64,000 nt of DNA from Myxococcota bacterium (GTDB lineage: Bacteria; Myxococcota_A; SURF-8). Below the pieces are notes generated by a model. It saw only the letters and a program-made list of their open reading frames with translations, ran no database searches and was not told the origin of the DNA. Shown here in pieces: positions 9,917 through 22,015 of this stretch; the stretch's first letter is position 1; each line of letters starts with the position of its first letter. Position numbers and translations under genes: made by a program. Location of the stretch: positions 2,464,001 through 2,528,000 of the forward strand of contig CAXXQS010000001.1 in the NCBI GenBank assembly GCA_963674735.2, written 5' to 3'.

Positions 9917-11017
9917 TTACCTATACTGCGCCAGGATGCGCGCGAAATCGTCGAACAGGTATTCGGTATCCACGGGGCCCGGGGCCGCTTCGGGATGGAA
10001 CTGAACCGAGAAGAAGGGCCGCGACCGATGCCGGATGCCCTCGTTGGTGCCGTCGTTGATGTTGACAAACCAGGTGTCCCAGTCGCTCGGGATGGTTTCG
10101 TCGTTGACGGCGTAGCCGTGGTTCTGGCTGGTAATGACGCAACGGCGCGAAACCAGATCCTGACACGGCTGATTCTGCGAACGATGGCCGTATTTCAATT
10201 TGTAGGTATCGGCTCCGGCCGCCAGCGACAGCACCTGGTTACCCAGGCAAATGCCGAAAATCGGTTTATCACCGGCCAGCAAGGCCTTGACCTGATGCAC
10301 CAGCGGCTGAACGTTTTTCGGGTCGCCCGGACCGTTGGACAGCAGCACGCCGTTGTAGTCTTGCTCCACCGCCAGCAGATTGGTACTCCAGGGAACCCGG
10401 TGCACCGTGATGCCGCGTTTGAGCAGATGGCGGATGATATTGAGTTTCACGCCGCAATCGACCACCAAGACGCTCAGATCGCCCGCCGGATACGTCACGA
10501 TTTCCCGGCACGAAACCTCGGGAACCACTTGATCCTCGGGAAGCGTGGTTTTGGCGGGAACGGTTTCATCAACATCCGCCGCCACGATGGTCCCGCGCAT
10601 GGTGCCGTATTCGCGTAGTTTTCGTGTCAGGGCGCGCGTGTCGATGCCCTCTATGCCCGGAACTCCCGCCTCCGCCATCCAGTTTTGCAAACTGCTCGAT
10701 GCCGTGCAGTGACTGTAGCCGGGGGACGCCTCGGAGACTACCAACCCCAGCACCTTGAGTCCGTCCGACTCATACGGGCCATTGATGGGATCTTCGGGAT
10801 CGGGAGCCGGAACTCCGTAATTCCCGATCAGGGGGGATGTCATCACTAAAATCTGGTTCGTGTAGGAGCAATCGCTGAAAGACTCCACATAACCGGTCAT
10901 CCCGGTATTGAAGACGACCTCTCCACACACGTCCCGGTCGGCTCCAAAGCCGACGCCGTGAAAGACACTTCCGTCTTCCAGAACTAATTTCCTCGGTTTC
11001 CCAGTCAGCGGGGTCAC
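9917..11017 (-). CDS. carA: Carbamoyl-phosphate synthase small subunit
   Basis: LVLEDG, GEVVFNTGMTGY, SNGPGDP, GICLG, SQNHG and QFHPE. Start placed at GTG 11017 behind GAGGGAG. Confidence 0.96.
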   Translation of the reverse strand: MTPLTGKPRKLVLEDGSVFHGVGFGADRDVCGEVVFNTGMTGYVESFSDCSYTNQILVMTSPLIGNYGVPAPDPEDPINGPYESDGLKVLGLVVSEASPGYSHCTASSSLQNWMAEAGVPGIEGIDTRALTRKLREYGTMRGTIVAADVDETVPAKTTLPEDQVVPEVSCREIVTYPAGDLSVLVVDCGVKLNIIRHLLKRGITVHRVPWSTNLLAVEQDYNGVLLSNGPGDPKNVQPLVHQVKALLAGDKPIFGICLGNQVLSLAAGADTYKLKYGHRSQNQPCQDLVSRRCVITSQNHGYAVNDETIPSDWDTWFVNINDGTNEGIRHRSRPFFSVQFHPEAAPGPVDTEYLFDDFARILAQYR

Positions 11018-11192
11018 GTCGTTGTCTCCCTCTCGTCTACTTGTCGATAGAGGTGGGCGCACCCACCATTGTGATCGGGGCCTATGGGTACCACAGCCGG
11101 AACGCTTGGGCAAGCACAAAGCACAGCCAGCTATCGTTTCTGTCAGAACGACACGACCGTGCCTGCGTGACAGCCCCCCTAATCGAGGGTTA

Positions 11193-13172
11193 TCACACGC
11201 TTTCCGATTTATCAAGCTCGGGATGCTGAAAAGGCTCGGGAGTCGGTTTTCCGATGAGACGAAGCGTAATCGCCAACACCCCCAAAGCCAAAAGATAGGA
11301 AACCGGCGGTGGCAACCAACCCGCGAGGCCATATCCCAAAGCGACGGCCACCAACCCAACCACGACGGCATAGGGAAGTTGCGTGCGGACATGGTCGATA
11401 TGATCGCAGCCCGCGGAAATCGACGACATGATGGTCGTATCCGACAGGGGCGAACAGTGGTCGCCGAAAATCGAGCCATCCAACACGGCTCCCACGCTGA
11501 TGATCATGAGGGGCAAGCCGCCGACATGGTACGCCAGCGGAACAGCCGCAGGCAAAAGCACGGCCATGGCCCCCCAACTCGATCCGGTTGCGAAACTGAT
11601 GGCGGCGCCGAGAAGAAAAATCAGCACCGGCACCCAAAACGGCGAAAGCGTGCTTCCAAGAGCGGCCACGAGGTAGGCTCCGGTCCCCAATTCGCCATTG
11701 AGATCGCCGATCGCCCAAGCCAGAATCAAGACGGAAAAAGCCAGCAATAACACACGCCAAGAGGACAGCCAGGCCAACACCAGACGTCCGAACGGTGCAC
11801 GTCCGGCTGCTACGCCTCCGATAAGCGCGACCCCCGTCCCTAAAAGAGACGCCATGGCCAACACCCAGGCCCCATCCTGACAGGCAATCAGGTAGTTGCC
11901 CTCCAGTTGCACCAACCGTCCCCAATCGAACGTGGTCCAGGCCGCCGTATTAACGTACCAAGGCCCCAGTAGACCCGCGCCGTTGGCGGCCATGCCGACC
12001 AACACCGCCCCGATCACCGTCAACACCGGCAGAAGTGCGTTGAGCGCCAAAGGCCGCCCCAGGATTTCGGGTCGTTTGGCCCCCGATAACGGTTGAGCGC
12101 CGGGACGCAGCAGTTGACCGGTTGTAGCCGCCCGTATCTGTGCGGTATACATCGGGCCGAACTCACGACGCATGATGATGGTCAACCACACAAACACCAG
12201 CGCCAGAATGCAATAAAAGCGGAAAGGCAAAGCTTGGATGAAAAGCGCATAGGCCGATTCGGTCATTTTCAGTTCCCGCATGGCATCGCCGATCAGGCTG
12301 ACTTCATAGCCGATCCAAGTGGAAATCAAAGCCAGACCGGCCACCGGAGCGGTGGTGCTGTCGACCAGATAAGCCAGTTTTTCACGCGAGATACGCGCCC
12401 GGTCGGCCAGTGGACGCATGGAACCGCCGACCACCACCGTGTTGGAATAGTCGTCGAAAAAGACGGCCAACCCCAGAAGCACCGTCGCCGCCTGGGTGGA
12501 ACGCGCCGAGCGGGCCAGCCGTCCCAAGGCGTCGGCCAAACCCTGCATCCCACCGCTGGCCACCGCCACATTGACGATACCGATCAAGGAAAAGGTGAAC
12601 AAAAAGATATATAGGCGAAAGTCGTCCACCATCACCATCGCCAGTCGCCCAATACCGCCCGCGCTTGCCCCCTTGACCACGCCCCACAAGCTTGGATCAC
12701 CGGACGCCAAAGCCGCCCCGAGCGCCACACCGGCCAAAAGCGAGACGATCAAACGCCGCGTCGCCATAGCCAAAGTCACCGCCAAAAGAGCCGGAAGCAA
12801 GGAAGTCCAGTGAATCCGTACAGTTGAAGCCGTAACGGGCTTGATTTCCGGCCCCTGGAGTTCCGCCGTCAATCGCCAGCCATCCCGGCTCAGTAAAAGG
12901 GTACAGTCCGAATGTAGTGGATCACCCGCTCCCAACGGGCCTCGCGCAGCAAAGGCCGAGGCCATCGGTAAAAAAACCCGCCCGTGTGCCTCCTGCTTGC
13001 ACAGATAACGGCCGATAGAGCCTGAAGCGGCCGCGGCTTGGCTCAATGCGTCATACAAACGGTCCGCATCGGCTTTGCCCCGACTTGTTTCATCGACCGG
13101 CAGCATCGCCAGAACGAGAATCACCCCCAATCCCACCAGCAGAGCCCACACCGCCCGAATTTTAAAGCTCAT
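11193..13172 (-). CDS. Na+/H+ antiporter NhaC-family protein with N-terminal extracytoplasmic domain
   Basis: FFDDYSN, REKLAYLVDST, ATGSSWG, GDHCSPLSDTT and HVRTQLPY. Confidence 0.9.
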   Translation of the reverse strand: MSFKIRAVWALLVGLGVILVLAMLPVDETSRGKADADRLYDALSQAAAASGSIGRYLCKQEAHGRVFLPMASAFAARGPLGAGDPLHSDCTLLLSRDGWRLTAELQGPEIKPVTASTVRIHWTSLLPALLAVTLAMATRRLIVSLLAGVALGAALASGDPSLWGVVKGASAGGIGRLAMVMVDDFRLYIFLFTFSLIGIVNVAVASGGMQGLADALGRLARSARSTQAATVLLGLAVFFDDYSNTVVVGGSMRPLADRARISREKLAYLVDSTTAPVAGLALISTWIGYEVSLIGDAMRELKMTESAYALFIQALPFRFYCILALVFVWLTIIMRREFGPMYTAQIRAATTGQLLRPGAQPLSGAKRPEILGRPLALNALLPVLTVIGAVLVGMAANGAGLLGPWYVNTAAWTTFDWGRLVQLEGNYLIACQDGAWVLAMASLLGTGVALIGGVAAGRAPFGRLVLAWLSSWRVLLLAFSVLILAWAIGDLNGELGTGAYLVAALGSTLSPFWVPVLIFLLGAAISFATGSSWGAMAVLLPAAVPLAYHVGGLPLMIISVGAVLDGSIFGDHCSPLSDTTIMSSISAGCDHIDHVRTQLPYAVVVGLVAVALGYGLAGWLPPPVSYLLALGVLAITLRLIGKPTPEPFQHPELDKSESV

Positions 13173-13393: not shown

Positions 13394-13422
13394 TTGACAG
13401 TCAGGTAACAGGGCTTTAACAT
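13394..13422 (+). promoter_or_regulatory. Sigma70-type promoter TTGACA-N17-TAACAT
   Basis: Consensus -35, 17-bp spacer, near-consensus -10; about 150 bp upstream of the ATG at 13574. Confidence 0.6.
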
Positions 13423-13573: not shown

Positions 13574-14620
13574 ATGTCGAAGAAATTTCTGTTGATTCTC
13601 ATGATGCTGCTGATGTCATTCGTATTGGTAGCCAATGGCTGCACGAGCGATGAAGAAGGTAGCAGCGACGGCGACGATGCCGATGGCGACGATCCCGACG
13701 GCGACGATCCCGACGGCGACGATCCCGACGGTGACGACGTGGGTTGCGCGGGTGCCTGCAACCCGGCCAGTGACGTATCCTTCTGCGTCGTGAACGACGT
13801 GTGTGTCTGCGAAGGAAACTGGACGCCTTACACCTGCGACCAGATCTGCGCCATGACCAACCAGGTCTCGGCGGGCTGTGGTCCCAACGACCTCGGCGTG
13901 CAGTACTGCATCTGCCAGGATCCGGCTGACGGCGATGATCCCGACGGCGACGATCCCGACGGCGACGATCCCGACGGCGACGATCCTGACGGCGACGACC
14001 CCGACGGCGACGATCCTCTGCCTTGCGAAGGTGCCTGCACCTACGGCGAAGATCTGCCCTTCTGCTCCACCGACACCAACCTGTGCTGGTGCGACGAGAC
14101 CGGCAACACCTACGGCATCGTCGACTGCGACCAGACCTGCCAGACCGAATACGGCGAAGCCGGCGTTTGCGACTATGACGACAGCGTCGAATACGATCGT
14201 TGCCTTTGCGGCAGCATCGGTGACCAACAGTGCCAGAGCGATGCCGACTGCGAAGCCCTGGGCAGCGACTACTGCGTTGGCGATTACGACGATCAGGGCA
14301 ACCAGATCACGATCTGCATGGACGCCTGCGACATCGTTTCCTGCGATCCCGGCACCGACGCGATCCCCTGCATCGATTATGGCAACCCGGGCCAGCCCTT
14401 CGGCGTCTGCTTCGACGATGAAGGCCCCGATTGCCCCACCCCGAACGACTTCTGCGGCGGCGATGAAAACCACATCTGCATGGCCTTCCAGAGCGGCGAC
14501 CAGATCTGCATGGAACTGTGCGATCCGGCTCCGAACACCTGCGGCGCCGATGCCCTGTGCATCCCGCTGAGCAACAGCTCCACCGGCGAACTGGTCGGCG
14601 GCGGCTGCCTCGAACTGTAA
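13574..14620 (+). CDS. Cys-rich acidic lipoprotein with DGDDP linkers and two 10-Cys modules
   Basis: AAGGAG RBS, lipobox ANGC, strongly C-ending codons, own terminator. Confidence 0.85.
   Translation: MSKKFLLILMMLLMSFVLVANGCTSDEEGSSDGDDADGDDPDGDDPDGDDPDGDDVGCAGACNPASDVSFCVVNDVCVCEGNWTPYTCDQICAMTNQVSAGCGPNDLGVQYCICQDPADGDDPDGDDPDGDDPDGDDPDGDDPDGDDPLPCEGACTYGEDLPFCSTDTNLCWCDETGNTYGIVDCDQTCQTEYGEAGVCDYDDSVEYDRCLCGSIGDQQCQSDADCEALGSDYCVGDYDDQGNQITICMDACDIVSCDPGTDAIPCIDYGNPGQPFGVCFDDEGPDCPTPNDFCGGDENHICMAFQSGDQICMELCDPAPNTCGADALCIPLSNSSTGELVGGGCLEL
13667..13738 (+). repeat. 15-bp coding tandem repeat (gacggcgacgatccc) x5, encoding DGDDP
   Basis: Read directly from the sequence. Confidence 0.95.
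13928..14017 (+). repeat. 15-bp coding tandem repeat x6, encoding DGDDP
   Basis: Read directly from the sequence. Confidence 0.95.
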
Positions 14621-14636
14621 TCGCATCTCGACTGAT

Positions 14637-14664
14637 AAAAGGGAGGCTTCGGCCTCCCTTTTTT
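14637..14664 (+). terminator. Intrinsic terminator
   Basis: aaaagggaggc-ttcg-gcctcccttttt: perfect stem, UUCG loop, U tract. Confidence 0.9.
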
Positions 14665-14793
14665 ACATTTATGCTGCACGCGCGATCTCTTCTTCCTTCT
14701 TTCAACGTTCGCCTCGCTTGACACCTTTTGCATTCCCCAGTACCATAAGCATGACTCGTCGGGAAATAGAGGCCATCGGAGAAGGAGTAGCAA

Positions 14794-16017
14794 ATGAGCC
14801 GGGCGTGCGTCTTTTTTTATTCCTGTGTCATGCTTTTAGCAACAATGCTCCTGGCCTGTTCATCATCCGGAGGCATCACCTTCACCTCAACCGACTGCCA
14901 AGGCGATAGCGGGTGTTCGGACGGCAAAATCTGCCTCAACGGCCGTTGCACCGTCCCCAGCACGCCCGATGGAGATGCCGAGGATGAATCCGACAGCGAA
15001 GCTCCCAGCATACCGCCCATTATCGAGAATCCTTGTGTCGGCCAATGCGACATCATAAGCGAAACCGCCTTTTGTATGAGCGACGACATCTGCCTATGCG
15101 AAGGAACCTGGAACTACTATACCTGCGACGAAATCTGCGACTATCTGGGCGGCCAGTCACTTGGCTGCGGCGCTTCATCCGATGGCCAGCCTTTTTGCAT
15201 CTGCGACGGTAGCGACGGCGACATCGATCCGCAACCCTGCATCGGAGACTGCAACCCCGGCGATTCTCCTTACTGCCTTCAGGATGACCTCTTATGCCGC
15301 TGCGACACGAATTCCGCCAGTTGGGAAACGGTATCCTGCATCGCCGAGTGCGGCGCCGCCGGTTATGCGGATGTCGGATATTGCGGTTTTAACGCTCTTG
15401 ATGGCGATCAGGCCTGCCTCTGCGAAACTTACATACCCGACTGCGACGGCCCCTGCAATGAGTTGGACATCAGTTTCTGCAGTACCGGCCGTGAGTTATG
15501 CTGGTGCGACTCCTACCTGGAATGGTGGACGCTGCTTGATTGTGAACAGATCTGCCTGGAAGCGGGCTTCGCCCCACCGGCCGAATGCGGTTACAGCAGC
15601 GACGCGGGCCACGAAGTCTGCTTCTGTTCGTCACCGGGCTTCGATCCGTGTGAAAACGCCCACTGCGACGCGAATGAAATCTGCTTTGAAGGTCGCTGTC
15701 TCACGAACTGTGATCTGATTTTCTGCGATGCGCCACAAAACCAGGAAGCTTGTGTCGGCTTCGACATCGGTTCACAACTATATGGCGGCTGCATGACCGC
15801 GGATGCTCCTCTATGCGATCAACCTTTCACCCCCTGCGGAGAGCGGAACCAGAAACTTTGCATCGGTCACTTCAGCGACAATACCAGTCGTTGCCTGGAT
15901 GGGTGCCCGCCAATCGCAAACACCTGTCCCAACGGGTTGACTTGCCTGCCCTTCGAAACCTCGGCTGGGCTTGTCGAGGGAGGCTGCGATCTGATAGCAG
16001 GCTGGGAGCTTCCATGA
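14794..16017 (+). CDS. Cys-rich lipoprotein, paralog of 13574..14620, with three 10-Cys modules
   Basis: AAGGAG RBS, lipobox LLAC. Shares CEG.W..YTCD.IC and the C-terminal P..NTC...C.P.......GGC domain with the upstream gene. Confidence 0.85.
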   Translation: MSRACVFFYSCVMLLATMLLACSSSGGITFTSTDCQGDSGCSDGKICLNGRCTVPSTPDGDAEDESDSEAPSIPPIIENPCVGQCDIISETAFCMSDDICLCEGTWNYYTCDEICDYLGGQSLGCGASSDGQPFCICDGSDGDIDPQPCIGDCNPGDSPYCLQDDLLCRCDTNSASWETVSCIAECGAAGYADVGYCGFNALDGDQACLCETYIPDCDGPCNELDISFCSTGRELCWCDSYLEWWTLLDCEQICLEAGFAPPAECGYSSDAGHEVCFCSSPGFDPCENAHCDANEICFEGRCLTNCDLIFCDAPQNQEACVGFDIGSQLYGGCMTADAPLCDQPFTPCGERNQKLCIGHFSDNTSRCLDGCPPIANTCPNGLTCLPFETSAGLVEGGCDLIAGWELP

Positions 16018-16078
16018 CCTCAGCCTTCATCCGTACCCACCACGCGGACTCGATAAATCTTGTTCCGGAGTCCGGGTC

Positions 16079-16915
16079 ATGACTCCACGGGTACTGATCG
16101 GGCTGGCTTACGGACTTCTCGCCACATTACTGGCTTGCGGGCTGTTCAACTTGAGTTCCTTCCATTGGTTGCCGCTTTCCATCACGATTGTTCTCATCGC
16201 CGGCGTCTGGGCCATCGTGGGATTGGCACTTGTTCTGTATCGCATCAGCAAGCACCTGAAGCGCCATGACGAACGACTCGCTGCTGCCGTCCACGAGCTA
16301 CGCGGTCCTCTCCAACGCCTGCGTCTGGCCCAGGCCCGTTTGACGCGCAACCCGGCCACGCATGATGAAGCCCTAATCGAAATCTCGCGTGATATCGACA
16401 TTTTGGATGAAACCCTCCGGCGTTTTGCCGAGCTCGTTCAGCTTGAACGTAAAACCCTGCAGCCACGTGAAACTCCCATCGGTCCATTGCTCGACGATCT
16501 GCTGCTACGCCATCGCATCACCGCAGAAGAACAGGGTTTGACCCTCAGCTTGGCGCCGCTTCCCTCTTTGGCACAGCGTCGCACCGATCCCGACCTGTTA
16601 ACCCGCCTACTCGACCAGTTGCTCTCCAATGCCTGCGCCTACACTCCACCGGGTGGTCGGGTCGATATCCAAGCCGAGGAGCGTGGCGGACGCCTGATCT
16701 TAACGATACGTGACACCGGCCCCGGTATCCCGGAAAACGAACAGGGGCACATCTTCGATGCCTTCGTGCGTGGCCATGACGCCCGCTTGATGGAAGCATC
16801 GGGGATGGGGTTGGGCCTGGCTTTCGCGCGTCGGGCTGCCCTGGCGCTGGGTGCCCGCTTACGCCTGCGAAACCGCACCCAAGGTGGACTCGAAGCCAGC
16901 CTCAGCCTGCCTTGA
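16079..16915 (+). CDS. Small membrane sensor histidine kinase (orphan)
   Basis: Two TM helices, H-box HELRGPL, LLSNA, DTGPG and GMGLGL. Confidence 0.85.
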   Translation: MTPRVLIGLAYGLLATLLACGLFNLSSFHWLPLSITIVLIAGVWAIVGLALVLYRISKHLKRHDERLAAAVHELRGPLQRLRLAQARLTRNPATHDEALIEISRDIDILDETLRRFAELVQLERKTLQPRETPIGPLLDDLLLRHRITAEEQGLTLSLAPLPSLAQRRTDPDLLTRLLDQLLSNACAYTPPGGRVDIQAEERGGRLILTIRDTGPGIPENEQGHIFDAFVRGHDARLMEASGMGLGLAFARRAALALGARLRLRNRTQGGLEASLSLP

Positions 16916-17526: not shown

Positions 17527-18684
17527 TTACTCCACGCTGAAGAATTCTTTGACTTTATCAAGAAAACTCGTGTTATCCGGCATGCTTACCTTGCCACGCT
17601 TGCAGCACGACTCATCGAATTTGCGAATCAGCTCTTTCTGATCCTTGGTAAGATTTTTGGGAACCTCTACCTGGACACGCACCAACTGATCGCCCTTCCC
17701 AATACTTCCAAGATGCTGAATTCCTTTATTTTTCATTCGAAATATATCGCCCGGCTGCGTACCGGCCGGTATTTTCAATCCGGCCTTGCCCTCCAAGGTA
17801 GGAACCTCCAACGTATCCCCAATCGCGGCGACTCCGAAACTGATCGGCATATCCAACACCACATCGTCATCGTGCCGCTTGAAGATTTTGTGTTCCTTCA
17901 CCAGTGTGACCACATACAAATCTCCCGCAGGTCCACCGCTCGAACCGCTTTCACCCTCGGCCTGTAAACGCAAGCGCTGGCCATGATCGATTCCAGCGGG
18001 CAGAGTGACGGTCAGGTTACGCGTTTTCTTGATGCGCCCCTGCCCACGACAACTGGAGCAAGGATCGGAGATAACCTGGCCACGCCCCCCACAAGCGGGG
18101 CAAGTACGGGCGATCATGAAGAACCCTTGCTGGACGCGAACCTGGCCGCTACCATGGCATTGTCCGCAGGCCGTCGGGGACGATCCGGGTTTGGCACCCG
18201 TTCCCTTGCAGGTTTCACAGCTCTCCATACGCGGAACTTCTATGACTTTTTCGCAGCCAAGCGCCGCTTCCTCGAACTCGACTTCCAGGTCATATCGCAG
18301 ATCGCGCCCACGCTGTGCATGAGTCCGCTGGCTGAAACCACCACCACCGAAAAAATCACCAAAGATGTCACCAAAAATGTCCATAAACGAGGAACTGTTT
18401 GAAAAACGGCTGAAATCGAAATCGAACCCGCCATACCCTCGGCTTTTTCCCATATCATGGCCGAACTGGTCGTAAAGCTTACGCTTTTCAGGATCAGACA
18501 GGGCTTCATAAGCCTCGGCCGCCTCCTTGAATTTTTCCTCGGCCCCGGAATCACCCTGATTTCGATCGGGATGGAATTTGACCGCCCGCTTGCGGAAGGC
18601 TTTCTTGATCTCGTCCGCTGAAGCCTCGCGTGCGACGCCCAACACTTCGTAGTAATCTCGTTTTTGCGCTGGCGACAAAACCAC
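17527..18684 (-). CDS. dnaJ: Chaperone DnaJ
   Basis: J domain with HPD, G/F region, four CxxCxGxG repeats. Confidence 0.98.
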
Positions 18685-18789
18685 TCCTTTACATATTCTT
18701 TTTCATATCAGCAACTTAGCAAGGAAACAATCTGAGGTCTAACTCATGATAAACCGCCACGCTTTTGCATCGCGCAACGGGTTACTCTA

Positions 18790-18817
18790 ATATGGGCATA
18801 TTTGGGGAAGAATCAAG
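18790..18817 (-). promoter_or_regulatory. RpoH (sigma32)-like promoter CTTG-N17-CCCATAT upstream of dnaJ
   Basis: Minus strand reads cttgattcttccccaaatatgcccatat. Confidence 0.55.
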
Positions 18818-18848
18818 TCCCCAGACGATTTTTTGTCCGATTTATCGA

Positions 18849-20711
18849 CTATTCGCCGCCGTCTTCCGGCTCTTTCTCCACTTCCTCGGCCGCTCGCGAC
18901 GCCTCGGCATACATGATGTCGGCAATTTTGTGGGAATGCGTGCTCAGTTCTGCAATTCCTTCATGAATCGTGGCGTAATCGTTGCTGGCAAGAGCCGCCT
19001 GCAGATTCTTCAAGCCTCTTTCTATTTCCGTTTGAGCGGTGGGGGAAATCTGGTCGGAATAGTCCTTCAGCGCTCGCTGGGTGGTATACATCAGCGTATC
19101 GGCTTCATTGCGCAGTTCGGCCATAGCCAATTTCTGCTTATCGTCCTCCCGAGCCGATTCCGCCATCGTAACCATGCGCTCGATCTCGCCTTCGGTCAAA
19201 CCCGAAGAAGCGGTGATGCGAATGGCCTGCTCTTTGCCGGTCCCGAGATCTTTTGCGGAAACATTCAGAATCCCGTTGGCATCGATGGTGAAGGTGACTT
19301 CGATCTGCGGCACACCGCGCGGAGCCGGTGGAATACCAACCAACTCGAAACGCGCCAGACTTTTATTGTCGGCCGCCATTTCGCGCTCACCCTGCAAGAC
19401 GTGCACCGACACCGCCGGTTGGTTGTCGGCAGCGGTGGAAAACACCTGGCTTTTGGTCGTCGGAATCGTTGTGTTCCGCTCGATCAGCCGTGTAAACACC
19501 GCCCCGAGGGTTTCAATACCCAGCGAGAGCGGTGTAACATCCAATAGCAGAACATCTTTGACGTCGCCTTTCAGAACACCACCCTGGATAGCGGCGCCGA
19601 TGGCAACCACTTCGTCGGGATTGACGCCTTTAAACGGCTGTTTTCCAAAGAACTCGGCCACACGGCCTTGCACTTTCGGCATACGCGTCATGCCGCCCAC
19701 CAAGATCACCTGGGTGATCTCATCGGTCGTCAGCCCGGCATCTTTGAGCGCCAGCCGACAAGGCTCGATGGTGTGATCGATCAAATCTTCGACCAAAGAT
19801 TCGAGTTTGGCACGCGACAGCTTCAGATGTAAGTGCTTGGGTCCGCTTTCATCGGCGGTAATGAACGGCAGGTTGACTTCCGTCTCCGTAGACGTGCTGA
19901 GCTCGTGCTTGGCCGATTCGGCGGCCTCTTTGAGCCGCTGTAAAGCCATACGGTCGCTCCGCAGGTTAATTCCGTGCTGGCGTTTGAATTCATCGGTCAT
20001 CCAGTCGATGATGCGCTGATCGAAATCTTCGCCACCGAGGAACGTGTCGCCATTGGTGGCGCGCACTTCGAAAACGCCCTCGTTGAGTTCGAGGATGGAA
20101 ATATCGAAAGTCCCGCCGCCGAGATCGTATACGGCGATACGCTCGTTCTGTTCCGTTTGTTCGTGATCCATTCCATAAGCCAGCGCGGCAGCCGTGGGCT
20201 CGTTGATGATGCGCAACACATTCAACCCCGCAATGCGGCCCGCGTCCTTGGTGGCCTGACGTTGCGAATCGTTGAAATACGCCGGAACCGTGATCACCGC
20301 GTCGGTGACTTCTTCACTGAGATAGTCTTCCGCCGTCTGTTTCATCTTCTGCAGCACCATGGCCGAAATTTCAGGTGGACTGAATTCTTTATCGGCCACT
20401 TTCACCCAGGCATCGGCATTCTTGGCGGAAACGATCTGATATGGCATGGTTTCCATCGCACGCTTGATTTCCGGAGAATCGAAGGTGCGGCCAACCAGTC
20501 GCTTAATGGCATGAACGGTATTCTCGGGATTGGTGATGGCCTGACGCTTCGCTATCTGACCAACCAGTCGCTCACCCTGCTCAGTAAAGGCAACCATGGA
20601 AGGCGTTGTACGTGCACCTTCCGAATTGGCGATAACAACGGGGTCTCCCCCTTCGATGATGGAGACACAGGAATTGGTGGTCCCCAGATCAATTCCAATC
20701 ACTTTGCTCAT
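18849..20711 (-). CDS. dnaK: Chaperone DnaK (Hsp70)
   Basis: [25 protein letters not shown] and NPDEVVA. Confidence 0.98.
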
Positions 20712-20778
20712 GGGCAGCTCCCTTTATGCGGTCGGATCTCAAACAATCGATAGTGTATTCGTTAAAACAGGTCTTGGT

Positions 20779-21924
20779 TCAGGTTTCGTCAATCGGTTCC
20801 AGTTCTTCGAGCTCCTGCGTTGGGTCGTCGGCCATATCCTCTACATTATCGAGAGGTTCGATCTCTTCCAATTCTTCGGCTTCCCTATCGGGTTTGCCGG
20901 TTTCCGCTTCAGCGCCGGATGGTGTTTGCGACACCACGACCAAAGCCGCTCGGATCAGGCGATCGTGCAGAAAGTAACCTTTCTGAAATTCTTCCACCAC
21001 CTGGTTGGACTCGACTTCCACGGTCTCCCGTACGGAAATCGCCTGGTGTTTGGTCGGATCGAATACACGCCCCAGACTTTCAACCGAACGTACCCCGGAT
21101 TTCTTCAAGATTTCACGGATCTGGCGATAGATCATCTGAACGCCTTCGAGCAGCGTATTGAAATCTTTCGACTGTTCCAGATGTGCCAAAGCTCTTTCGA
21201 AATTGTCCATCACCGGCAGAAGTTGCTTGAGCAACTCCTCGTTGACGAACCGTTGATGCTCTTCCCGTTCTCGGACCGTGCGCTTTTTGAAGTTATCGAA
21301 ATCGGCCATCACACGCAACAACCGTTCGTAATTCTCATCCGCTTGCTTCTGATCGGCTGCGACCGTCTCTCCCGTTTCCGACTTTTCCACCGGCTCGACG
21401 GGTTCCGGATCTTCTTCCTCGATCTCGATCTCGCTCTCCGTATCGAATATCTCGGCCAAACCGGTCATCGGCTGGGCGGGCGGCTCGTCGTTAATGGCCT
21501 CCATAATTGGCGGCACCACAGGCGACGTCGCGGACAGCAAAACTTCGCTATCCAGAATGTCATCCACGACCTCGAAGTCATCTTCCGAGTCGCCTTCATC
21601 CTCGACCCGACTTTGTAGATCACCGACACCGAGAGGCAATTCAGCCGGCATGTCGCCCCTTTGGAAGTCTTTGTCCTCCAATTTCCGGCCGGTCAGTTCT
21701 TCTGCGATGTCATCCCTGAGCGATTCGAAGGCATGGGCTTGATCGTCATCGGACGGTTCGTTCTCGGGTGGGGTTGGTTGAGTCTTACGAGAAATGGCTT
21801 TATCGGCATCTTCCAAGGCCATATTGATGGCCGAAGCCAACGAATCGAGATCGGAAAAATGTTCGTCCACGCTTTCGAGATTTATCGGGGAGCCTTTCGG
21901 CCTCTGTTTTTTCGATTGACTCAC
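20779..21924 (-). CDS. grpE: Nucleotide exchange factor GrpE with very long acidic N-terminal extension
   Basis: ADFDNFKKR, LLPVMDNFERAL, FDPTKHQA and GYFLHDRLIRAALVVV. GTG 21924 is well spaced from GGAGGA. Confidence 0.92.
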   Translation of the reverse strand: MSQSKKQRPKGSPINLESVDEHFSDLDSLASAINMALEDADKAISRKTQPTPPENEPSDDDQAHAFESLRDDIAEELTGRKLEDKDFQRGDMPAELPLGVGDLQSRVEDEGDSEDDFEVVDDILDSEVLLSATSPVVPPIMEAINDEPPAQPMTGLAEIFDTESEIEIEEEDPEPVEPVEKSETGETVAADQKQADENYERLLRVMADFDNFKKRTVREREEHQRFVNEELLKQLLPVMDNFERALAHLEQSKDFNTLLEGVQMIYRQIREILKKSGVRSVESLGRVFDPTKHQAISVRETVEVESNQVVEEFQKGYFLHDRLIRAALVVVSQTPSGAEAETGKPDREAEELEEIEPLDNVEDMADDPTQELEELEPIDET

Positions 21925-22015
21925 CTGCACTCCTCCACCCAGGCTACGGCATTTGCTGGTGTCGTGCCAGAAGGCGTCCGATTCCTTCGGCTATCACTAA
22001 TTTACACCTTGGGGC

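Follow-up and report, generated by a model that had tools for sequence, protein, structure and literature searches.

An acidic, repeated cysteine-rich module with a predicted defensin-like core in secreted proteins of a Myxococcota bacterium

Introduction

Is the cysteine-stabilised alpha-beta (CS-alpha-beta) scaffold of defensins also used as a repeated domain of large bacterial proteins? The question is raised by two tandem genes, A and B, of a Myxococcota bacterium of the SURF-8 lineage (GenBank assembly GCA_963674735.2). The genes lie in a stretch of 64,000 nucleotides (contig CAXXQS010000001.1, positions 2,464,001 to 2,528,000 of the forward strand), referred to here as the window; coordinates given without a prefix are positions in it. 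Both gene products contain copies of a module of about 60 amino acids, which proved to be a real, unnamed, rare and lineage-restricted extracellular domain. The repeated, acidic use of a defensin-type core, as predicted by modelling, within large surface proteins and proteases of bacteria is probably new.

Results

Five modules in two tandem genes

13574 to 14620, plus strand: gene A, acidic Cys-rich secreted protein of 348 amino acids with 37 Cys (open reading frame (ORF) and translation)
14794 to 16017, plus strand: gene B, acidic Cys-rich lipoprotein of 407 amino acids with 53 Cys (ORF and translation)
13745 to 13915, plus strand: module A1, short type, 57 amino acids, 10 Cys (regular expression; hidden Markov model (HMM), E 9e-20; short clade, support 84/87)
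14024 to 14209, plus strand: module A2, long type, 62 amino acids, 10 Cys (regular expression; HMM, E 1e-22; long clade, support 85/93)
15034 to 15204, plus strand: module B1, short type, 57 amino acids, 10 Cys (regular expression, HMM, tree)
15238 to 15423, plus strand: module B2, long type, divergent, 62 amino acids, 10 Cys (regular expression, HMM; long branch in the tree)
15442 to 15627, plus strand: module B3, long type, the copy modelled with AlphaFold2, 62 amino acids, 10 Cys (regular expression, HMM)

A first-pass annotation of the window had placed five 10-Cys modules at these positions of the two tandem genes. A regular expression of its cysteine pattern returned exactly these five matches, and the peptides that it had quoted were present. 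The cysteine spacings of the five copies were 3/7-8/5-6/1/8-11/3/9-10/9-10/1. When the copies were aligned, the ten Cys and one Gly were invariant, with 36-46% identity to the first copy. Over the 43,233 six-frame ORFs of the whole genome the expression had 19 matches; a control of 200 shuffles of the 1,454 Cys-rich ORFs gave 0.0 per shuffle, and chance was thereby excluded.

In a tree of 32 modules, A1 and B1 fell into a short-type clade (support 84/87), and A2, B2 and B3 into a long-type clade (support 85/93). Both clades include modules of another genus, which indicates that the short-then-long order is older than the split of these genera. The two proteins have a common plan of signal peptide or lipobox, acidic linker, one short-type module, long-type module(s) and a C-terminal domain of 16 Cys; the short-type module is followed by one long-type module in A and by two in B. 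The proteins matched each other in BLASTP at 3e-31 and belong to one family of paralogues, secreted proteins that are very acidic and rich in disulfides. The genome encodes at least seven proteins built in this way. The strong acidity reported by the first-pass annotation was borne out by residue counts, with 83 Asp plus Glu against 3 Lys plus Arg in A and 66 against 9 in B.

Spread and partners of the module family

To count family members we used a 46-row module alignment and E<=1e-3 unless stated otherwise. A profile of the five window copies alone already matched 12 other genomes (13 of 61 including the genome of the window). The genome of the window gave 27 module matches. All ten genomes of its order were matched; the class consists of the same ten genomes, nine of which also matched at E<=1e-5. 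When the phylum was sampled evenly, the module was found in 19 of 251 genomes, namely those of its own class, 9 of the 13 that represent one other family, and a single additional one. Among 1,835,955,588 representative proteins, 203 matched at E<=1e-3, 54 at <=1e-10 and 2 at <=1e-30. No Pfam or NCBIfam model spanned the module in scans of A, B and their relatives. The nearest clusters in the ESM Atlas, which are leads only, were unnamed and labelled Myxococcota (scores 0.81-0.86). A whole-protein word search with B returned B alone, and a search of genome contigs for loci related to protein B returned none; the same contig search with a protein that joins a papain-like protease to the module gave two unrelated matches in metagenome-assembled genomes, to the protease part only.

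The carriers are proteins of 250-3,000 amino acids, and of up to 3,279 in relatives, with one to six modules each. Those in the genome of the window include one trypsin-like and one papain-like protease, the latter with a PPC domain and two modules, and an FG-GAP/ASPIC protein; 8 of 12 were without any Pfam domain. Partner domains among 93 scanned representatives were Ldl_recept_a in 12 (6+6), Trypsin or Trypsin_2 in five, Peptidase_C1 with PPC in two, Peptidase_C11 in one and FG-GAP in one. Of the 143 relatives whose start is complete, 91 begin with a lipobox-like sequence. The modules had a median net charge of −9, and only 17 of 389 instances were at or above 0 (3 of 389 at or above +2).

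Two groups of carriers deviated from the window type. In the 12 metagenome representatives with LDL-receptor class A (LDLa) repeats (P0003, P0007, P0012, P0013, P0020, P0027, P0025, P0026, P0029, P0035, P0055 and P0066), these repeats are interleaved with 8-Cys variants of the module. Four of the six LDLa carriers with displayed sequence (P0003, P0012, P0013 and P0020) have a lipobox-like start. Such repeats are uncommon as a partner domain in bacteria. The other deviating carrier, at G000:C2:1856010-1856924 (L034), is a lipoprotein of 305 amino acids that consists almost wholly of four divergent modules with 8 and 12 Cys and lacks the C-terminal domain; its modules branch deepest in the module tree.

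Cysteine anatomy of the module

Conservation was counted over 389 distinct module instances. Cysteines at profile positions 5, 14, 23, 34, 38, 49, 60 and 62 were conserved in 87-100% and form an 8-Cys core. Positions 1 and 21, which are cysteines 1 and 4 of the pattern in the first-pass annotation, were both Cys in 79 instances and neither in 273; position 1 alone was Cys in 37 and position 21 alone in none. The additional pair is thus a subfamily feature that the window copies carry. The core would contain four disulfides, and the window subfamily probably a fifth, C1-C4, because the cysteines at 1 and 21 occur together and the latter never alone.

Among other residues, L20, G27, W29 (aromatic in 73%), G42, G48, G56 and D58 were conserved, and Gly directly preceded C49 in 60% of instances. 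The loop of the last hairpin was mostly 10 residues long. Family variants included 12-Cys forms and forms with a short last hairpin, which have the classical defensin spacing CxxxC-x9-C-x4-CxC. These short-hairpin forms aligned to the window type with an hhalign probability of 95.8.

Predicted fold

Module B3 was modelled with AlphaFold2 from the 46-row alignment (predicted local distance difference test score (pLDDT) 94.8; predicted template modelling score 0.74). In the model, residues 1-17 are mostly irregular and are followed by strands at 18-23 and 28-33, a helix at 34-40 and strands at 48-52 and 57-61. The CxxxC motif is predicted to lie on the helix, with C34 and C38 within residues 34-40. 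In the predicted second hairpin, C49 is in strand 48-52 and C60 in strand 57-61, with C62 adjacent. The C-terminal 41 amino acids (15505-15627), modelled alone as a half module, retained the helix (13-19) and both strands (27-31 and 36-40) at a pLDDT of 90.1. The order of elements and the placement of cysteines in the predicted structure are those of the CS-alpha-beta motif, and disulfides presumably link the helix to the strands. The first-pass annotation had named the lack of a helix disulfide-linked to a beta-hairpin as grounds for giving up its proposal; both the hairpin and a helix bearing CxxxC are present in the prediction.

As modelled, the module would start with a disulfide-tethered N-terminal loop and a beta-hairpin, after which a CxxxC helix would pack on a C-terminal hairpin that carries (G)C and CxC. 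It would therefore be a CS-alpha-beta, or cis-defensin-like, core with an N-terminal extension.

Relation to defensins

A half-module profile was compared with all PDB sequences. Fourteen matches were obtained at E<=10, 11 of them CS-alpha-beta proteins, with E-values of 0.0095-4. They included plant Defensin-2 (0.0095), PsDef1 (0.014), Lqh3 (0.05), eurocin (0.16), an arthropod defensin (0.26) and BmK toxins. In the profile alignments the cysteines were in register, as were the EG-aromatic residues at the helix end and the G-x-C-D/G-aromatic residues. When 46 single halves were scanned against Pfam, Defensin was matched by seven, SLR1-BP by five, Gamma-thionin by five and Toxin_3 and Toxin_31 by one each, with other families as singletons, and the ranking of families was the same for whole modules. 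A profile of the short-hairpin forms matched hydramacin-1, gamma-1-H thionin, cobatoxin, nasonin-1 and two vicilin hairpinins in the PDB (E 0.087-1.5). In Foldseek searches with the half model, the rows of highest template modelling score were all CS-alpha-beta proteins (1lqh, Art v 1, PDFL2.1, brazzein and OD1), and the local superpositions covered 29 columns at 1.8 A and 28% identity for 1lqh, 27 columns at 2.2 A for Art v 1 and 27 columns at 2.7 A for PDFL2.1. The top VIA match of the half model was mytilin.

Several results weigh against a defensin relationship. None of the matches was significant, the best PDB profile E-value being only 0.0095, and no Foldseek row reached E<=1e-3 with the full or the half model. 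The gathering cut-offs of Defensin (PF24552), Gamma-thionin (PF00304), Toxin_3 (PF00537) and SLR1-BP (PF07333) were not reached; the best halves scored E 0.0014-0.0055, with at most 7 of 46 matching, and whole modules scored more weakly. No defensin family was found on 50 whole relatives at E<=0.05. Six-frame genome scans with PF24552 and PF00304 missed all modules and resembled those of control genomes. Cys-rich profiles favour Cys-rich proteins, and the family-specific trend may reflect convergence of spacing. The nearest, weak fold neighbours of the whole module were chitin-binding proteins of the peritrophin type. In the Pfam scans of proteins A and B themselves, the defensin families gave no match.

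Taking both sides together, we regard a CS-alpha-beta-like core as quite likely, on the predicted order of helix and hairpin and the Foldseek and profile leads, and common descent of the module with defensins as rather doubtful. The evidence does not place the module in any curated defensin family. The CS-alpha-beta family of the first-pass annotation was thus upheld in the predicted fold order; statistical significance, curated cut-offs and reverse scans did not bear it out.

A known EGF-like or other repeat, which the same annotation had named as the opposite outcome, was not found. At E<=10, A and B gave only TSP1_TSH7A-B_C (E 0.007 over 13 residues) in Pfam and nothing in NCBIfam. Over 46 modules, hEGF and EGF_FBN_1st gave single matches at E 0.5-0.58, and TSP1_TSH7A-B_C gave four (best 0.0044, below the cut-off). 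In the PDB, the whole-module profile matched a single SRCR chain (E 0.77), and this was treated as noise.

The shared C-terminal domain

14228 to 14608, plus strand: C-terminal 16-Cys domain of A, ending in GGGC (iterated HMM, alignment)
15628 to 15987, plus strand: C-terminal 16-Cys domain of B (HMM envelope 15622-15987, alignment)
Further copies: G000:C2:1114869-1115249, C2:1353689-1354069, C2:47348-47698, C1:386717-387085 and C1:385891-386232

The Cys-rich C-terminal domain that the first-pass annotation had ascribed to both genes was recovered by BLASTP, iterated HMM search and alignment. It comprises about 125 amino acids with 16 conserved Cys and a GGGC end, and always stands C-terminal to modules. 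Eight matches were found in the genome of the window, and the domain was present in 8 of 10 genomes of the order. The closest paralogue of A was 91% identical over this domain. It had no match in the PDB or Pfam, and a word search with the copy of A returned only five paralogues from the same genome.

Signal peptides, acidic linkers and a 4-Cys motif

13574 to 13642, plus strand: signal peptide of A, ending LVANG-C23, non-canonical lipobox
14794 to 14859, plus strand: signal peptide of B, lipobox LLA-C22 (...MLLA-C22)
13666 to 13737, plus strand: acidic linker repeat 1 in A, (DGDDP)n (Tandem Repeats Finder (TRF): 15-bp tandem repeat, 4.8 copies, 92% matches)
13928 to 14016, plus strand: acidic linker repeat 2 in A, (DGDDP)n (TRF: 15-bp tandem repeat, 5.9 copies, 93% matches)
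14896 to 14949, plus strand: 4-Cys mini-motif CQGDSGCSDGKICLNGRC of B, 5' of module B1, with Cys at residues 35, 41, 47 and 52

Both genes had been called lipoproteins. We applied the lipobox pattern [LVI][ASTVI][GAS]C, which B passed and A failed, with Asn at −2. The product of B is, as judged from its canonical lipobox, a lipoprotein. That of A is clearly secreted and probably lipid-anchored, the latter being less certain since LVANG-C is outside the pattern.

In public DNA runs, the summed contig depth at the two linker repeats of A (13666-13737 and 13928-14016) was ~835-977, against ~6-26 in most other bins of run X1, and short-read contigs broke at these repeats. Depth and contig breaks indicate that this linker-coding repeat is common across these genomes or samples. 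In one of three public DNA runs, contigs spanned 14300-16100 with four differences.

The 4-Cys mini-motif of B had no family match in a Pfam scan. It has the form C-x5-C-x5-C-x4-C, and a similar one opens the C-terminal domain of B (15643-15699). The protein at G000:C2:391095-393422 (L035) starts with many units of this kind and gave a weak match to DUF7107 (E 3.4e-4, below the cut-off).

Transcription signals and neighbouring genes

13394 to 13422, plus strand: sigma-70-like promoter match 5' of gene A (consensus scan, 10/12 hexamer matches; pattern only)
14637 to 14662, plus strand: terminator-like hairpin 3' of gene A (11-bp stem, T run; strong)
14718 to 14746, plus strand: sigma-70-like promoter match 5' of gene B (consensus scan, 10/12 hexamer matches; pattern only)

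A Shine-Dalgarno-like AAAGGAG is located 7 nt 5' of the ATG of gene A, and a similar AAGGAG upstream of the ATG of gene B. A and B are probably transcribed separately, because each has its own promoter-like match and a terminator-like hairpin follows A. A gene for a small two-transmembrane histidine kinase (HATPase_c; 16079-16915) begins 61 bp past the stop codon of B. No terminator-like site was found between them on the plus strand, and co-transcription of the kinase gene with B is therefore possible.

The neighbours of A and B in the window are housekeeping genes: carAB, a Na+/H+ antiporter gene, the small histidine kinase gene and dnaJ-dnaK-grpE. A comparison of the window with four paralogue loci and the tandem pair in genome G001 revealed no conserved gene neighbour; the only neighbour in common with the window was a second dnaK set at one locus. 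There, a second tandem pair of lipoprotein paralogues (G000:C2:46412-48226; L043 5395-7226) adjoins dnaK-grpE-dnaJ (L043 7437-11455), just as the window pair adjoins its own set (17527-21930). The DnaK proteins of the two loci are merely 55% identical, so the shared setting does not reflect a recent segmental duplication; it may be a coincidence. The GrpE ORF (20779-21930) encodes 383 amino acids, of which the GrpE domain spans only residues 184-335. The carA ORF (9917-11479) encodes 520 amino acids, has its CPSase domain from residue 165 and overlaps the antiporter ORF. Either these two ORFs have long N-terminal extensions or their start codons were called too early. No RNA family of Rfam was found within the window.

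Discussion

What the modules may do

We favour, with a little more than even confidence, an acidic, modular use of the defensin-like scaffold in paralogous surface and secreted proteins, for binding or adhesion and not for cationic killing. The scaffold would be a module for binding or adhesion that resists proteases and by which surface proteins and secreted proteases are displayed, or targeted to the surfaces of prey or matrix; the DGD-rich linkers would serve as extended spacers that possibly bind Ca2+. A binding role is suggested by the median charge of −9, by fusion to Trypsin, Peptidase_C1 with PPC, Peptidase_C11 and FG-GAP/ASPIC domains, by position beside Ldl_recept_a and by the many lipobox starts. 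From these features the module would be a stable extracellular unit for binding or display and not a cationic, membrane-active peptide. Nor do the modules fall into the functional class of defensins, which are small (<~60 amino acids when mature), standalone and usually cationic: they are acidic and embedded in proteins of 348 and 407 amino acids. The first-pass annotation had proposed an acidic, lipid-anchored CS-alpha-beta family that serves adhesion or recognition rather than killing. Its family, acidity and predicted fold order stood; no defensin match was significant, and the lipid anchor of A is less certain.

Other readings were considered. The module may be an independent disulfide-rich fold whose likeness to defensins is a convergence of Cys spacing, nearer to the two-hairpin type of peritrophin-A/CBM14 or tachycitin, and would then be a glycan (chitin)-binding module on surface proteins and proteases. 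The whole-module fold neighbours mentioned above point this way; the six-Cys CBM_14 family itself was matched by none of 46 modules at E<=10, and a genome scan with PF01607 missed all modules. We hold this reading to be unlikely, if worth keeping in view. Less probable still is a role in protease inhibition or control, with the modules keeping secreted proteases latent in cis and the lipoproteins shielding the surface of the producer. Inhibitors of proteases or amylases are known among small domains rich in disulfides, some defensin-like proteins of plants included; the module is found together with proteases of four families (Trypsin, Peptidase_C1, Peptidase_C11 and Trypsin_2), and one module gave a weak TIL match (E 0.96). 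Yet most carriers have no protease domain, as in the 8 of 12 of this genome that lack any Pfam domain; no inhibitor family was matched at a meaningful score, no protease gene was a conserved neighbour of the lipoprotein paralogues, and no reactive-site-like conserved loop was identified.

Multiple copies joined by repetitive linkers would also suit polyprotein precursors, from which cutting of the linkers would free modules of ~60 amino acids as antimicrobial or toxin-like effectors in competition or predation. Known bacterial defensins are mainly myxobacterial, as far as the available text of the surveys cited below goes, and the present lineage is labelled Myxococcota/Myxococcales. Against such release, the modules are strongly acidic (median −9, with 3 of 389 at +2 or more), the linkers showed no conserved cleavage motif, the module also stands inside large enzymes, from which its release is not expected, and at their C-terminal end the proteins carry a distinct, conserved domain of 16 Cys. 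We consider this very improbable.

Possible meaning for the origin of defensins

If the defensin-like core is confirmed, an unnamed domain family of several hundred proteins would be added to the catalogues, the scaffold would not be tied to cationic killing and the debate on the origin of defensins would gain testable material. A further-reaching view is that the cis-defensin scaffold is an ancient, mobile and acidic domain of surface lipoproteins and secreted proteases in Myxococcota, from which the small secreted defensins of bacteria, and by the same reasoning those of eukaryotes, were excised and recharged. We think it improbable; if true, it would provide a concrete precursor for the 'myxobacterial origin of defensins' and imply that the ancestral role was one of binding or recognition and not antimicrobial. 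Should the likeness be only convergent, the module would still be a new lineage-restricted extracellular domain family. The modules may also be of practical use as small, very stable binding scaffolds.

Comparison with known systems

We compared the module with the CS-alpha-beta/cis-defensin superfamily (plant defensins and gamma-thionins, insect and fungal defensins, long-chain scorpion toxins, brazzein and mytilin). As in these proteins, its last ~40 residues carry C...CxxxC...(G)C...CxC with a predicted helix followed by a hairpin. Unlike them, the module is repeated inside large proteins, has an extra N-terminal tethered loop and hairpin with two additional Cys in the core and four in the window copies, has a hairpin loop of mostly 10 residues, and is strongly acidic instead of cationic.

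In the literature, as far as its available text extends, bacterial defensin-like sequences have been described only as small free peptides, in few lineages including myxobacteria. One survey lists 74 bacterial cis-defensins in five classes (I-V, including xanthusin-1), mostly delta-proteobacterial and all small secreted peptides (PMC11561630, available text). Another reports 48 defensin-like peptides from more than 100,000 screened genomes, in actinobacteria and myxobacteria only, together with actinomycesin and the actifensins (PMC8819291, available text). According to these texts, the published peptides share with the modules a bacterial, mostly myxobacterial host lineage and the helix-hairpin Cys motif, and some have acidic N-terminal tails (PMC11561630). 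They differ in being small, standalone and secreted with three or four disulfides, whereas the modules are embedded. The words 'lipoprotein' and 'tandem' are absent from the main texts of PMC11561630 and PMC8819291, and 'multidomain' from that of PMC11561630. A literature search of a limited library, covering titles and the openings of abstracts, gave no description of such a module. The PDB matches of the half profile (14) and of the short-hairpin profile (6) included no solved defensin from bacteria.

The peritrophin-A/CBM14 fold (EHEP, Der p 23, Avr4 and the CBM14 of chitotriosidase) and the bubble-protein/PAFC fold gave weak scores and no sequence match. The module differs from both in the number and pattern of Cys and in having a helix between its hairpins; in PAFC, by the available part of its description, a short 3-10 helix precedes the strands and none lies between the hairpins. 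Accessory modules of secreted bacterial proteases, such as PPC, PKD and similar domains, are unrelated to it in sequence, and it is much smaller than they are and disulfide-dependent. It resembles them in its position, C-terminal to catalytic domains of the Peptidase_C1 with PPC or Trypsin type.

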